Source of the DNA: Escherichia coli
GTDB lineage: Bacteria; Pseudomonadota; Gammaproteobacteria; Enterobacterales; Enterobacteriaceae
DNA: 64,000 nt
Reading direction: 5' to 3' (one strand)
NCBI RefSeq assembly: GCF_003334355.1
Contig: NZ_QOWP01000004.1
The position numbers were made by a program, and so were the translations under genes. Within the stretch, counting starts at the first letter, position 1. Each line of letters starts with the position of its first letter. This document shows positions 14,903 through 19,744 of the stretch, in pieces. The notes under the pieces were generated by a model. The model was not told the origin of the DNA and ran no database searches. It saw only the letters and a list, made by a program, of their open reading frames with translations.

Positions 14903-16813
14903 TTACCTGGAGGATGGTATCGCAAGGAAACGAACCGCACGGGCAATGTCACGGGTGCGTGGCGCGGGCGGCAGACTGGCGAGAAACGTCGCGCCGTAAG
15001 GACGCATCACCAGCCGATTGTCACAAATCACCAGCACGCCACGATCGTCGGCGTCGCGAATCAGTCGCCCTACCCCCTGTTTGAGAGTAATGACGGCATC
15101 TGGTAGTTGCACTTCATCGAACGGGTCGCCACCGCGCAAACGACAATCTTCCATGCGCGCTTTTAACAGTGGATCATCCGGCGAGGTAAACGGCAATTTG
15201 TCGATAATTACCAATGACAATGTATCGCCACGCACGTCCACCCCTTCCCAGAAACTACTGGTTGCCACAAGAAGCGCATTACCGGCACTGACAAACTGCT
15301 GCAACAGTTGGCCTTTACTGGTTTCCCCCTGCAACAAAACGGGAAGCGTCATGGTAGCGCGGAACTGCTCGGCCAGATCGCGCATCATGGCGTGCGAGGT
15401 ACAAAGCATAAAACAACGACCGTTGTTAGCTTCGATGATCGGTCGCAGCATTGCCGCTAACTGGCGAGCAGAACCTGGCTGGTTGGTTTGCGGCAGATTG
15501 CGCGGCACACAGAGTAACGCCTGGCGGCTGTAATCAAACGGGCTTGGCAATAGCAACGACTCCGCCTGTTCTATCCCAAGCCGCGAGGTGAAATGATGCA
15601 GATCGTCGTTCACCGACAGCGTTGCTGAGGTGAAGATCCAGCTACCGGGCTTTTGCGCCATTAACTCTTTGAATTTATCCGCCACGCTGAGCGGCGTGAG
15701 AGCCAGAGTAAAATGGCGCGAAGTGCATTCGTACCAGTAGCTGTAGCCCGGCTGATTGATCTCTTTTAGCCGCTTCAGCCGTGTGCGATACAACGTGGCG
15801 CGCTCAAATGCCGCATCCAGCAAGGCGGAACGCCCCAGTGACAGTTTTGCCACGTCATAACAAAGTTCCAGGGTGTCATCGAGCAGTAAAAATGCCCGCT
15901 GAATTTGCGGATTAGCTAACAGCTCACGCAGGTTACCGCGATAACCTGGCTCACCGAGTTGCAGACGAAAATCCTGCGCACTCTGGGCAAGACGATCAGC
16001 GCACTTTTGTAACTGCTGGGTGTCTTTTAATTCGGTGCGGTAGGCGATGGTGATGTCTTTTGCCAGGTCGAGCAGTTGTCGACTGGAGAGTGACTGACCA
16101 AAATACTGGCTGGCAATGTCCGGTAGCTGGTGGGCTTCGTCGAAGATCATGACGTCCGCTTCCGGGATCAGTTCGCCAAATCCACTCTCTTTAACCACCA
16201 TATCCGCCAGAAAGAGATGATGGTTTACCACCACCACATCGGCGTCCATCGCTTTTTTACGTGCTTTGACCACAAAGCAATCTTTATACATCGGGCAGTC
16301 GCTGCCAAGACAGTTGTCGTTGGTGCTGGTGACCAGCGGCCACGCCTGTGAATCTTCCGCCACGCTGACGCAGGTGCTGATATCACCATCGACTGTTTGA
16401 TTAGACCAGGAGCGCAGCAGGATCACATCGCTTAAGATTTGTACCGGCAGATCGCCCCCCGCCAGCGCCTGCTGTTCGAGACGTTCGAGGCAGAGGTAGT
16501 TTGAGCGCCCTTTCAGCAGCGCCACGTTGCCCGTATATTTCAATGCCTTTGAGACTGTTGGCAAATCGCGGCTGTAGAGCTGATCCTGCAACGCTTTTGA
16601 GCCGGTCGAGATAATGACTTTCTTTTTCGCCCGCAGCGCAGGAGCCAGGTAAGCGTAGGTTTTGCCCGTACCGGTTCCTGCTTCCACCACCAGCGGCTGG
16701 CCTTTTTCTATCGCCTGGGTGACGGCTACCGCCATCTGTCGCTGTGGTTCTCGCGGCTTAAAGCCTGGTATCGCTTTCGCCAGCTGACCGTCTGGTGCAA
16801 AATCGTCCGTCAC
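14903..16813 (-). CDS. yoaA: DinG-family ATP-dependent helicase YoaA
   Basis: 636 aa; Walker A (AGTGTGKT), DEAH-like box, iron-sulfur cysteine cluster. Confidence 0.93.
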   Translation of the reverse strand: MTDDFAPDGQLAKAIPGFKPREPQRQMAVAVTQAIEKGQPLVVEAGTGTGKTYAYLAPALRAKKKVIISTGSKALQDQLYSRDLPTVSKALKYTGNVALLKGRSNYLCLERLEQQALAGGDLPVQILSDVILLRSWSNQTVDGDISTCVSVAEDSQAWPLVTSTNDNCLGSDCPMYKDCFVVKARKKAMDADVVVVNHHLFLADMVVKESGFGELIPEADVMIFDEAHQLPDIASQYFGQSLSSRQLLDLAKDITIAYRTELKDTQQLQKCADRLAQSAQDFRLQLGEPGYRGNLRELLANPQIQRAFLLLDDTLELCYDVAKLSLGRSALLDAAFERATLYRTRLKRLKEINQPGYSYWYECTSRHFTLALTPLSVADKFKELMAQKPGSWIFTSATLSVNDDLHHFTSRLGIEQAESLLLPSPFDYSRQALLCVPRNLPQTNQPGSARQLAAMLRPIIEANNGRCFMLCTSHAMMRDLAEQFRATMTLPVLLQGETSKGQLLQQFVSAGNALLVATSSFWEGVDVRGDTLSLVIIDKLPFTSPDDPLLKARMEDCRLRGGDPFDEVQLPDAVITLKQGVGRLIRDADDRGVLVICDNRLVMRPYGATFLASLPPAPRTRDIARAVRFLAIPSSR

Positions 16814-16944
16814 ACTACCCCCTGTTGATTTGAACAGGGATTATGTCAGGATGAGGGCGCTTTCGCCAGTTGAAGTGGTGACGGCGACCTCACATTGTGG
16901 CAGTCTTTGCAGCACGAAAATGGAAGTATAATGAGGACAAAATG

Positions 16945-17289
16945 ATGACTATCGTTCGTATCGATGCTGAAGCCCGCTGGTCTGATGTAGTAATCCACAA
17001 CAACACGCTCTACTACACTGGTGTACCGGAAAACCTCGACGCCGATGCCTTTGAGCAAACCGCCAACACGCTGGCACAGATTGACGCCGTGCTGGAAAAA
17101 CAGGGCAGCAATAAATCGAGCATTCTGGATGCCACCATTTTCCTGGCCGATAAAAACGACTTCGCGGCGATGAATAAAGCGTGGGATGCCTGGGTTGTGG
17201 CGGGTCATGCGCCGGTGCGCTGCACGGTGCAAGCGGGACTGATGAACCCGAAGTATAAAGTTGAAATTAAGATTGTGGCTGCGGTGTAA
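16945..17289 (+). CDS. yoaB: RidA/YjgF-family protein YoaB
   Basis: ATG 16945 with GAGGA SD gives 114 aa (MTIVRIDAEARW...). Confidence 0.88.
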   Translation: MTIVRIDAEARWSDVVIHNNTLYYTGVPENLDADAFEQTANTLAQIDAVLEKQGSNKSSILDATIFLADKNDFAAMNKAWDAWVVAGHAPVRCTVQAGLMNPKYKVEIKIVAAV

Positions 17290-17710
17290 GCTTTATCGAA
17301 GCAAAATAAGTCAGACGATAATTTATCGATAATACTGGTCGGTTTTACATAAATCGACCAGAGATTAAGATATTACTGTTGATGCTCCTGCTAATTCATT
17401 ATTTATTTTTATAATTTCAATTTTAGCTATAAAGCTAACTATATAAATAAACATAACCATGCCGTTGTGTTCGCCCTTCGATTAGCACCTCTGGTTTTCT
17501 TTCTTAGCTGAACAATCTGGTTATAGCGTGCGGACTGACCGTTAATTTTCTCCATCTTACTGGATAACACACCATGAGCTGCTACCTTTAAAACACCTGA
17601 ATGTCAACAGGTTAACTCGTGCCATATCGTTATAATCCCTTTGATATTAGATGCAAATTAAGGTCATATATAGCCTTATCGATAACATGGTTAATTTTAA
17701 GGATAAGAAT

Positions 17711-18010
17711 ATGCCTGCTGTAATAGATAAAGCCCTGGATTTCATTGGTGCCATGGATGTATCAGCGCCAACACCAAGTTCGATGAATGAAAGCACAGCG
17801 AAGGGAATCTTTAAATATTTAAAAGAACTGGGAGTACCCGCGAGTGCCGCTGATATTACGGCGCGAGCTGACCAGGAAGGCTGGAACCCTGGGTTCACGG
17901 AAAAAATGGTTGGATGGGCAAAAAAAATGGAGTCTGGTGAACGCACTGTAATTAAAAATCCTGAATACTTTTCAACATATATGCAGGAAGAACTAAAAGC
18001 ACTGGTCTGA
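17711..18010 (+). CDS. yoaC: DUF1889 protein YoaC
   Basis: ATG 17711 with AAGGA SD gives 99 aa (MPAVIDKALDF...). Confidence 0.85.
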   Translation: MPAVIDKALDFIGAMDVSAPTPSSMNESTAKGIFKYLKELGVPASAADITARADQEGWNPGFTEKMVGWAKKMESGERTVIKNPEYFSTYMQEELKALV

Positions 18011-18038
18011 GTTTAATTTATATCAGCATAAATGGGTC

Positions 18039-18076
18039 AGGACGCTTTTAATCACATATAAAAAGCGTCCTTTTTC
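18039..18076 (+). terminator. Rho-independent terminator after yoaC
   Basis: aggacgctttt / aaaagcgtcct hairpin followed by a T5 run. Confidence 0.65.
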
Positions 18077-18129
18077 TCACAATCAAATAATCATCGGATT
18101 CTATAACGAAATCGATACGGATTAGTGTG

Positions 18130-18309
18130 TTACTCGTCTTCATCCTCAAAACGCGCCACGATTCGCTCGCCGGAGTGGTTGGCACGCAGCTCTTCTGCCA
18201 CCAGCGCGATTGCCTGGCCGCTGCTCATCCCTTGTGCCATCAGTTCCTGGATCCGCTCGACAGCTTTTTGCTGCTGTTCATGGGTGAGTGAAGGTAAACC
18301 TGCAAACAT
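18130..18309 (-). CDS. yoaH: UPF0181 small protein YoaH (59 aa)
   Basis: Minus-strand translation [59 protein letters not shown]; the plus-strand ORF 18125..18325 in the track is its antisense shadow. Confidence 0.8.
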
Positions 18310-18382
18310 TGTTAACTCCTGCTAAATTGTTGGCGCTAATTATTTCATGCTACCCGGCACATAGCCAGTAGAGTCAGGACTG

Positions 18383-19744
18383 ATGAAGACGTTATCTCCC
18401 GCTGTGATTACTTTACCCTGGCGTCAGGACGCCGCTGAATTTTATTTCTCCCGCTTAAGCCACCTGCCGTGGGCGATGCTTTTACACTCCGGCTATGCCG
18501 ATCATCCGTATAGCCGCTTTGATATTGTGGTCGCCGATCCGATTTGCACTTTAACCACTTTCGGTAAAGAAACCGTTGTTAGTGAAAGCGAAAAACGCAC
18601 AACGACCACTGATGACCCGCTACAGGTGCTCCAGCAGGTGCTGGATCGCGCAGACATTCGCCCAACGCATAACGAAGATTTGCCATTTCAGGGCGGCGCA
18701 CTGGGGTTGTTTGGCTACGATCTGGGCCGCCGTTTTGAGTCACTGCCAGAAATTGCGGAACAAGATATCGTTCTGCCGGATATGGCAGTGGGTATCTACG
18801 ATTGGGCGCTCATTGTCGACCACCAGCGTCATACAGTTTCTTTGCTGAGTCATAATGATGTCAATGCCCGTCGGGCCTGGCTGGAAAGCCAGCAATTCTC
18901 GCCGCAGGAAGATTTCACGCTCACTTCCGACTGGCAATCCAATATGACCCGCGAGCAGTACGGCGAAAAATTTCGCCAGGTACAGGAATATCTGCACAGC
19001 GGTGATTGCTATCAGGTGAATCTCGCCCAGCGTTTTCATGCGACCTATTCTGGCGATGAATGGCAGGCATTCCTTCAGCTTAATCAGGCCAACCGCGCGC
19101 CATTTAGCGCTTTTTTACGTCTTGAACAGGGTGCAATTTTAAGCCTTTCGCCAGAGCGGTTTATTCTTTGTGATAATAGTGAAATCCAGACCCGCCCGAT
19201 TAAAGGCACGCTACCACGCCTGCCCGATCCTCAGGAAGATAGCAAACAAGCAGAAAAACTGGCGAACTCAGCGAAAGATCGTGCCGAAAATCTGATGATT
19301 GTCGATTTAATGCGTAATGATATCGGTCGTGTTGCCGTAGCCGGTTCGGTAAAAGTACCAGAGCTGTTCGTGGTGGAACCCTTCCCTGCCGTGCATCATC
19401 TGGTCAGCACTATAACGGCGCGACTACCAGAACAGTTACACGCCAGCGATCTGCTGCGCGCAGCTTTTCCTGGTGGCTCAATAACCGGGGCTCCGAAAGT
19501 ACGGGCTATGGAAATTATCGACGAACTGGAACCGCAGCGACGTAATGCCTGGTGCGGCAGCATTGGCTATTTGAGCTTTTGCGGCAACATGGATACCAGC
19601 ATTACTATCCGCACGCTGACTGCCATTAACGGACAAATATACTGCTCTGCGGGCGGTGGAATTGTCGCCGATAGCCAGGAAGAAGCGGAATATCAGGAAA
19701 CTTTTGATAAAGTTAATAAGATATTACGCCAACTGGAGAAGTAA
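18383..19744 (+). CDS. pabB: Aminodeoxychorismate synthase component I
   Basis: 453 aa; chorismate-binding enzyme family; recognised as PabB. Confidence 0.95.
   Translation: MKTLSPAVITLPWRQDAAEFYFSRLSHLPWAMLLHSGYADHPYSRFDIVVADPICTLTTFGKETVVSESEKRTTTTDDPLQVLQQVLDRADIRPTHNEDLPFQGGALGLFGYDLGRRFESLPEIAEQDIVLPDMAVGIYDWALIVDHQRHTVSLLSHNDVNARRAWLESQQFSPQEDFTLTSDWQSNMTREQYGEKFRQVQEYLHSGDCYQVNLAQRFHATYSGDEWQAFLQLNQANRAPFSAFLRLEQGAILSLSPERFILCDNSEIQTRPIKGTLPRLPDPQEDSKQAEKLANSAKDRAENLMIVDLMRNDIGRVAVAGSVKVPELFVVEPFPAVHHLVSTITARLPEQLHASDLLRAAFPGGSITGAPKVRAMEIIDELEPQRRNAWCGSIGYLSFCGNMDTSITIRTLTAINGQIYCSAGGGIVADSQEEAEYQETFDKVNKILRQLEK

Follow-up and report, generated by a model that had tools for sequence, protein, structure and literature searches.

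A conserved stem-loop in the AT-rich yoaB-yoaC spacer of Escherichia coli is the 3′ end of the yoaB mRNA

For hairpin-driven release of a transcript, E. coli RNA polymerase normally requires a U-tract behind the stem. A different kind of 3′ end was described for Rho-terminated mRNAs of E. coli, in which precise steady-state 3′ ends lie just past stable stem-loops without a U-tract, C exceeds G downstream of the end, and PNPase and RNase II trim the transcript back to the stem (Dar & Sorek 2018, PMC6061677). Sites with such U-less stem-loops were considered to be possibly in transition between the two termination mechanisms (PMC6061677). Moreover, many termination sites of E. coli are leaky to some degree (PMC6131387). 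With respect to regulators acting on yoaC, the LysR-type regulator YhaJ recognizes a box of TCA-N7-TGA within T-N11-A (Palevsky 2016, PMC5031710), and yoaC has been listed as a YhaJ-regulated gene with a YhaJ ChIP-seq peak in both EHEC and UPEC (PMC6765310 Tables S3/S4). For YeiE, also of the LysR type, the ChIP-exo site at yoaC lies upstream of that of RNA polymerase, and activation of yoaC was reported (PMC6237786 Fig. 3B).

Here, the spacer between yoaB and yoaC and the inverted repeat located in it were analysed and compared with these systems. The term window refers to the whole stretch of E. coli DNA that was analysed, with a length of 64 kb. The alignment of the window with the genome of strain MG1655 is free of indels and colinear (NC_000913.3 coordinate = window position + 1876422) and, therefore, published MG1655 maps apply to the window. 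The 1.2 kb around the repeat are 100% identical in strain MLI023K1 and were matched in 5426 of 5426 complete E. coli genomes. The RefSeq annotations of MG1655 and MLI023K1 contain no feature inside the spacer. The transcription start site (TSS) of yoaB given in Table 1 agrees with an independent 5′-end mapping, in which the 5′-UTR of yoaB was 31 nt long (PMC5230787 Table 1).

Table 1. Coordinates of the features at the yoaB-yoaC-yoaH locus, as positions in the window
Feature	Position	Strand	Source or basis
yoaB TSS	16913 (MG1655 1893335)	+	SMRT-Cappable-seq, PMC6131387 Supp Data 1
yoaB coding sequence, RidA family protein	16945..17289	+	RefSeq (MLI023K1, MG1655); ORF list
yoaB stop codon	17287-17289	+	
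yoaB 3′-UTR, 76 nt, ending in the stem-loop	17290..17365	+	Stop codon to Term-seq 3′ end
Escherichia-specific insertion of ~0.83 kb (hairpin, AT-rich spacer, yoaC, terminator)	17292..18124	.	Locus comparison
Exact match to TCGATAAATT	17320..17329	-	Sole exact match in the 64-kb window; lead only
Inverted repeat ctggtcg-N13-cgaccag, 3′-terminal stem-loop of the yoaB mRNA	17335..17361	+	Fold, conservation, polymorphism
Range of YhaJ (LysR-type regulator) ChIP-seq peak centres	17346..17369	.	PMC6765310 Tables S3/S4
Untranslated spacer with C > G and the published Rho termination region at 17597	17362..17660	+	Base counts; DirectRNA-seq
Mapped RNA 3′ ends, 2 and 4 nt past the stem	17363..17365	+	SMRT-Cappable-seq 1893785; Term-seq 1893787
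Predicted YhaJ motif of the original study; TTATAGATAAAATTGA in MG1655/CFT073, with a single mismatch in the window	17417..17432	-	PMC6765310
Block conserved across Escherichia, presumed yoaC promoter and 5′-UTR	17575..17710	+	Species alignment; inferred
yoaC, DUF1889 family protein	17711..18010	+	RefSeq annotation
Hairpin between yoaC and yoaH with a 3′ end on both strands	18039..18071	.	Term-seq, sequence
yoaH, convergent to yoaB/yoaC	18130-18309		

The spacer (17290-17710) comprises 421 bp with a G+C content of 0.34, as compared with 0.50 for the whole window, and its core between 17362 and 17460 reaches only 0.21, in line with the initial annotation, which had described a long and AT-rich region. 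A/T tracts are present at 17402-17451. The phasing that had been ascribed to tracts between 17380 and 17460 was not confirmed; with AA/TT autocorrelations of 0.11 (lag 10) and -0.18 (lag 11), a phasing of 10-11 bp is unsupported. A small ORF in the spacer was considered and rejected, since no frame stands out in cross-species similarity and each of them is interrupted by indels, which agrees with the earlier remark that none of the short frames has a recognizable product. One E. coli frame on the minus strand gave a sub-threshold YciY-family match (15-17 bits vs a cutoff of 30; E = 0.005-0.03), which was absent from the frames tested in four other Escherichia species; this match is unproven and probably due to chance.

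The inverted repeat was found at exactly the reported position, and its pairing extends inward to an 11-bp stem (CTGGTCGGTTT/AAATCGACCAG) with one G-U pair, five G-C pairs and a 5-nt loop. On the + strand the stem-loop is predicted to fold with a minimum free energy of -15.5 kcal/mol, in comparison to -3.6 ± 1.9 kcal/mol for shuffled sequences (z = -6.35; none of 200 shuffles folds as well). On the - strand, the value is -10.6 kcal/mol, the + strand fold being stronger because one of the pairs is G-U in the + sense. An energy of -15.5 kcal/mol is reached by 1.0% of all 37-nt windows and by 0.24% of the equally AT-rich ones, and several of the few comparable AT-rich sites consist of a hairpin followed by a T-run. 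Here, as had been noted initially, the stem is not followed by a T-run: the downstream sequence is AGAGATTA with 2 T among the next 8 nt, and the tail directly after the stem reads AGAGAUUA in the window and AGAGAAUA in MG1655, with 1-2 of 8 nt being U. A consensus terminator scan of positions 16700-18200 returned no terminator-like site, and a sigma-70 consensus scan returned two weak promoter-like sites, fewer than in shuffled sequences. An Rfam scan of positions 16500-18500 at E values up to 10 yielded matches at chance level only (E ≥ 2.5, far under the gathering scores).

Two independent datasets for MG1655 map RNA 3′ ends to the repeat. By Term-seq, an end at 1893787(+), 4 nt past the stem, was detected in LB at OD 0.4, in LB at OD 2.0 and in M63 with scores of 6544.72, 1584.54 and 1224.85, respectively, and the flanking sequence printed for this end is the hairpin (Adams et al. 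2021, PMC7815308 Supp file 1). The end was classed as 'orphan' (PMC7815308) because it is located 76 nt past the stop codon and exceeds the 50-bp limit for 'primary' ends. In the SMRT-Cappable-seq data (Yan et al. 2018, PMC6131387), the unit that begins at TSS 1893335 runs to a transcription termination site (TTS) at 1893785, 2 nt past the stem, covers only gene b1809 and has its end labelled 'novelTTS'. Of the primary transcripts from the yoaB TSS (5′-triphosphate, full-length), 18/23 end there, none ends within 50 bp beyond this site and 3/23 reads pass through, with a median extension of 267 bp (PMC6131387), which corresponds to an end at ~17630. The operon table of the same study holds b1809 and b1809|b1810, both from TSS 1893335, and no entry for b1810 only (PMC6131387). 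The Cappable-seq supplements had no entry for the yoaB-yoaC region, and a literature search on b1809/b1810 found nothing relevant. The mapped yoaB end falls in AGA(A/U), outside any U-run. From the mapped transcript ends it follows that the hairpin forms the 3′ terminus of yoaB mRNA, with leaky termination, and we have high confidence in its assignment as the 3′-end stem-loop of yoaB. The hairpin, which had been regarded as isolated and as lying upstream of yoaC, is thus the end structure of the preceding gene and lies 45 nt past its stop codon.

The repeat was aligned for E. coli, Escherichia sp. MOD1-EC7003 (MOD1), Escherichia sp. E1V33, E. whittamii, the locus L007 and E. albertii. None of these six Escherichia lineages has lost the hairpin, whereas the AT-rich core of the spacer diverges and is mostly deleted in MOD1. 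The stem arms changed in a compensatory manner from GGTC/GACC to GACC/GGTC in MOD1, one T-A pair is replaced by C-G in E1V33 and E. whittamii, and the G-U and U-G wobbles in the alignment are valid in the + sense only. Among 11 distinct sequences, 94% of the stem cells are paired, in comparison to 17-46% for slid partners; double changes occur at two stem pairs, and the covariation score is 0.164 vs 0.121 in shuffled data, with 8 of 500 shuffles reaching 0.164. With 11 distinct sequences and two compensatory pairs, covariation lends modest and consistent support to a stem that would form in the + strand RNA. Within E. coli, the six variants compared differ in the loop or the apical pairs only and the eight outer pairs are invariant. 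The 27-mer of the repeat is matched in 5408 of 5426 E. coli genomes, at a median of one and a maximum of two places per genome, and it is unique in the window with up to 3 mismatches allowed. Sister species have more U in the tail, which reads TGTTTTAG in E1V33 and TGTTTAAG in both E. whittamii and L007, and in E. whittamii a second terminator-like hairpin is located directly behind the homologous one. The consensus terminator scan flagged neither the homologous hairpin of E1V33 nor the other U-richer tails of the sister species.

For the origin of the spacer, the yoaB locus was compared in 80 species-representative genomes, five of them from Escherichia and 75 from other genera of the Enterobacteriaceae including Citrobacter, Salmonella, Klebsiella, Enterobacter and Kosakonia. 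In most of the 75 loci outside Escherichia the stop codon of yoaB abuts that of the convergent yoaH, the two being 4-6 nt apart in three loci that were aligned; some loci have a wider gap between yoaB and yoaH or no yoaH within the flank. No YoaC homologue was found in the 2.5-kb flanks of these 75 yoaB loci, and yoaC is located beside yoaB only in Escherichia, i.e. in the five representatives and in E. coli. Together with yoaC, the spacer forms an Escherichia-specific insertion, which accounts for its length and its high A+T content. The YoaC protein is 88-99% identical across the Escherichia species. In Klebsiella, a YoaC homologue (69% identity) is encoded at a different locus, downstream of a canonical terminator, and no similar hairpin is present; thus the hairpin does not travel with yoaC there. 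A mobile-element origin of yoaC was also considered and rejected, with a tblastn search of plasmids giving only mislabelled chromosomes.

Upstream of yoaC, the block at 17575-17710 is nearly invariant across Escherichia and contains a perfect TATAAT (17631-17636) and a ribosome binding site, AAGGA; on sequence grounds it is presumed to be the promoter and leader of yoaC. Behind yoaC, Term-seq ends were reported on both sides of the hairpin shared with yoaH, at 1894498(+) = 18076 within a T-run and at 1894457(-) = 18035, 4 nt past the stem (PMC7815308). A proper T-run follows this bidirectional hairpin on the + strand, where it behaves like a canonical terminator of yoaC, unlike the yoaB hairpin. 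On the - strand the yoaH mRNA ends 4 nt past the stem without a U-run, with the same geometry as the yoaB end.

Compared with a canonical intrinsic terminator, the yoaB site is alike in that a hairpin is positioned 45 nt past the stop codon and most transcripts end there, and its partial leakiness is shared with many termination sites of E. coli (PMC6131387). It differs in lacking a U-tract of 7-8 nt, in having G-C pairs at only 5 of 11 stem positions, in the end within AGA(A/U) and in receiving no call from the terminator scan. The site agrees with the stem-loops of Rho-terminated mRNAs (PMC6061677) in the stable U-less stem-loop, the precise end a few nt past the stem, the excess of C over G in the sequence behind it and a reported bicyclomycin-sensitive region farther downstream; Rho dependence and exonuclease trimming were established for that class and would apply to yoaB by analogy, and, the tail being U-richer in sister Escherichia species, the site perhaps stands between the two termination classes. 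The C/G ratio is 1.1-2.4 in 80-nt windows across 17362-17660. By DirectRNA-seq with and without bicyclomycin, a Rho termination region was located at 1894019(+) = 17597 (PMC7815308 Supp file 2), with reads of 92/41 in untreated and 67/94 in treated cells, a Rho score of 3.15 and p = 2.4e-6, called on 800-nt windows. This region lies 232 nt downstream of the Term-seq end, a position that is coarse owing to the 800-nt windows and to which transcripts from another start possibly contribute; the end of the read-through transcripts at ~17630 falls in the same zone. The initial annotation had considered an intrinsic terminator unlikely. The missing T-run is still compatible with the marking of a transcript end, because U-less stem-loops are a known signature of Rho-terminated mRNAs (PMC6061677).

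On this basis, the following course of events is proposed for the yoaB message. Transcription from 16913, as seen in full-length transcripts, passes the yoaB stop codon and reaches the repeat, and the yoaB RNA is predicted to fold into the 11-bp stem-loop, as supported by covariation. Since the stem has no U-tract, RNA polymerase would mostly run past it into the untranslated spacer with C > G, where Rho may terminate it in the bicyclomycin-sensitive region around 17597. The 3′-to-5′ exonucleases PNPase and RNase II would then trim the tail to the stem, which blocks them and so would fix a precise and stable end. This would account for a steady state in which, as the mapped ends indicate, most transcripts end 2-4 nt past the stem, a minority reads on by a median of ~267 nt and some reach yoaC. 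Hairpin and Rho zone together would keep most of the yoaB transcription away from yoaC and its own regulated promoter, and the AT-rich DNA of the spacer carries binding sites of YhaJ and YeiE, which act on yoaC. Most likely, the yoaB hairpin belongs with the U-less stem-loops found where Rho-terminated transcripts end. As an account of the whole region, a 3′-terminal yoaB stem-loop formed by Rho and trimming and insulating yoaC is probable and offers the best explanation.

A rival account concerns the way in which the 3′ end is made. The hairpin could instead be a non-canonical, leaky intrinsic terminator, releasing the RNA at 17363-17365 without a U-tract and leaving to Rho only the clearance of read-through transcripts. 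The 18 of 23 (78%) primary transcripts that end at the stem, with none in the next 50 bp, fit such a terminator equally well, intrinsic terminators have stems of the same strength, and the U-richer tails TGTTTTAG (E1V33) and TGTTTAAG (E. whittamii, L007), the second hairpin right behind in E. whittamii and the suggested transition of such sites between mechanisms (PMC6061677) point in the same direction. In E. coli itself, however, the 8 nt that follow the stem contain only 1-2 U (AGAGAUUA; AGAGAAUA in MG1655), the mapped end is in AGA(A/U) outside a U-run, the scan was empty here as for the E1V33 homologue, and the U-tract normally needed by the polymerase is missing. Direct intrinsic release is therefore held to be the less likely origin, though a serious one, and Rho with subsequent trimming is favoured by a modest degree over hairpin-driven termination because the site fits the class of Dar & Sorek in its excess of C over G, its Rho region and a read-through end in the same zone. 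Another reading takes the repeat for a chance palindrome or a copy of a REP/BIME-like repeated element without a specific role. AT-rich DNA is rich in short inverted repeats, with 33 pairs in the 500-bp stretch around the repeat; but none of 200 shuffles folds as well, the fold is in the top 0.24% of AT-rich windows, its conservation across species is compensated, and RNA ends map to it in two independent datasets. The REP/BIME repeated extragenic palindromes require many copies per genome, which rules them out for a repeat that is unique in the window and present once in nearly every genome. Together, mapped 3′ ends and conservation already refute this reading, to which we attach almost no probability.

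Other explanations place the function in the DNA. The initial annotation had left the choice between a protein-binding site and an RNA structure; the 3′ ends 2-4 nt past the stem and the + strand covariation favour the RNA structure, and the absence of a YhaJ box and the compensating arms speak against an operator. The operator reading holds that the repeat is primarily a site for YhaJ and/or YeiE controlling yoaC. It draws on the YhaJ peak centres, which in CFT073 (UPEC) are at 2045445 and 2045463 in the two replicates (PMC6765310 Table S4), i.e. 17351 and 17369 in the window, with the CFT073 coordinate system having been checked at the yhaJ peak, and in EHEC at 305 bp from the gene 5′ end (PMC6765310 Table S3), i.e. 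~17346 if the 119-aa start at 17651 is used. These centres are on or beside the repeat; the motif assigned by the authors is ~65 bp away in both strains, is weak and is deleted in MOD1; in addition, yoaC is a listed YhaJ target (PMC6765310) and is activated by YeiE bound upstream of its promoter (PMC6237786). The peaks are ~400 bp wide, which is too coarse to assign the contact to the repeat, and centres are up to 93 bp from validated motifs elsewhere, e.g. at yqjF in EHEC (PMC6765310), so that the coincidence is within error. A YhaJ matrix was built from ten published sites, which score 15-19 on it themselves; the highest score in the whole spacer was 4.7, the repeat itself reached 0.7 at most, the assigned motif scored 0.5, and no credible box was obtained. 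The repeat resembles YhaJ sites (PMC5031710) in its dyad symmetry, its AT-rich promoter-distal setting and its location under a YhaJ summit. It differs from them in geometry, with a dyad of 19-27 bp and half-site centres 17 bp apart set against TCA-N7-TGA in T-N11-A, and in the lack of a matrix match; furthermore, its arms compensate (GGTC to GACC) rather than stay fixed, and the G-U asymmetry points to RNA. Because no YhaJ box is present, the geometry does not match and the arms covary, the repeat is unlikely to be an operator, and its having this as its primary role is improbable. YhaJ and YeiE bind the yoaB-yoaC spacer, and the repeat itself is probably not their operator. Also improbable is a double role, in which the RNA ends the yoaB message, the DNA lies under the YhaJ summit and the regulator tunes read-through into yoaC; if true, the finding of yoaB-yoaC but no yoaC-only transcripts by SMRT-Cappable-seq would fit a factor-modulated, Rho-backed terminator controlling yoaC. 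A further explanation regards the region mainly as a horizontally acquired AT-rich tract bound by H-NS, with the repeat being incidental to silencing of yoaC by nucleoid proteins. The spacer and yoaC are an insertion found only in Escherichia with 21-34% G+C, IS1 has inserted repeatedly in the spacer, and the sole exact TCGATAAATT of the window, a high-affinity motif of H-NS, marks a putative site at 17320-17329. Against this stand the supplements of one H-NS paper, which have no entry for yoaB or yoaC, and the match to the motif, which is not conserved in sister species; moreover, the RNA 3′ end and the compensatory stem changes are left unexplained. H-NS silencing as the main explanation is doubtful, and H-NS binding is compatible with the yoaB stem-loop as an explanation for the rest of the spacer.

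Taken together, conservation of the repeat, transcript ends and protein occupancy, the observations that the initial annotation had regarded as informative for this site, are all present: the repeat is kept in six Escherichia lineages with compensatory changes, Term-seq and SMRT-Cappable-seq ends are at 17365 and 17363, and the published YhaJ ChIP-seq centres at 17346-17369 are on or next to it. Both the 3′ end at the hairpin and the nearby regulator binding were already contained in published datasets; the feature is real, ordinary and of a well-described class, and nothing here will surprise a specialist. For annotation, the yoaB transcription unit obtains a defined 3′ end at MG1655 1893785-1893787, and the 'orphan' end and the 'novel TTS' of two published tables are traced to the same conserved stem-loop. 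The locus is a small example of a horizontally inserted gene, yoaC, that came to lie between two abutting convergent genes; through the insertion, the upstream one acquired a new 3′ end. The tail, U-poor in E. coli and U-richer in sister species, fits the published idea of terminators that drift between intrinsic and Rho-dependent modes.

The yoaC gene and both of its flanks (17292-18124 in the window) make up a 0.83-kb insertion that is specific to Escherichia. The insertion lies where yoaB and yoaH converge, between their stop codons, which elsewhere abut, as was found in most of 75 loci from other Enterobacteriaceae genera; in three aligned sequences from non-Escherichia loci the two stop codons are separated by 4-6 nt. 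The coordinates of the features discussed here are collected in the table.

Features of the yoaB-yoaH region (window coordinates unless stated differently)
Feature	Position	Strand	Remark
TTATCGA	17293-17299		noted alongside the TTATCGATAA copies
TTATCGATAA, copy 1	17323-17332		immediately 5′ of the main hairpin
43-aa ORF	17439-17570	minus	ORF of the 54-codon frame
Stop-to-stop frame, 54 codons	17442-17603	minus	
TTATCGATAA, copy 2	17676-17685		in the presumed yoaC leader
yoaC-yoaH intergenic hairpin	18039-18071	both	Term-seq 3′ ends
IS1	749-1446 of the strain 74-2 locus (L089)		E. coli strain 74-2

RNA ends published for E. coli MG1655 were mapped onto the window. At the yoaC-yoaH hairpin, the plus-strand Term-seq end lies within a T-run at 18076, and a very strong minus-strand end (signal 94186) was found at 18035, 4 nt beyond the stem and without a U-run; the geometry of this minus-strand end is identical to that of the yoaB mRNA end at the main hairpin, the 3′-terminal stem-loop of that transcript (17335-17361). 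In E. whittamii, the main yoaB hairpin is directly followed by a second short terminator-like hairpin (2927-2942 of locus L006) with a T-rich tail, which overlaps the 3′ arm of the main hairpin in sequence, and the same arrangement is present in a further Escherichia lineage (L007). The perfect 10-bp palindrome TTATCGATAA occurs in two copies spaced by 353 bp and is not preserved as such in the sister species.

The yoaB-yoaC spacer carries IS1 insertions in several strains (74-2, D7 and H10407). In strain 74-2 the element interrupts the 5′ arm of the main hairpin and its target duplication restores a complete hairpin on the yoaC side, so that the IS parts the stem-loop from yoaB. On the minus strand of the spacer, the 54-codon frame matched the NCBIfam YciY family below threshold (E = 0.005-0.03; 15-17 bits at a family cutoff of 30 bits). 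In the sister Escherichia species the frame is broken and gives no such match, which is probably due to chance or a decayed remnant.

Regarding the 5′-ends, the mapped yoaB transcription start site at 16913 yields a leader of 31-32 nt. A consensus TATAAT is located downstream of it (16927-16932) and would give rise to a second, almost leaderless yoaB transcript; according to one paper, RegulonDB has yoaB 5′-ends of either kind, with and without a leader (PMC5230787). Upstream of yoaC, the block 17575-17710 is near-invariant across Escherichia species. It contains a perfect TATAAT at 17631-17636 with no good -35 element, and the SMRT-Cappable-seq listing comprises only yoaB and yoaB-yoaC transcripts, with no yoaC-only entry. 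Therefore, the yoaC promoter may be silent unless its activators are present.
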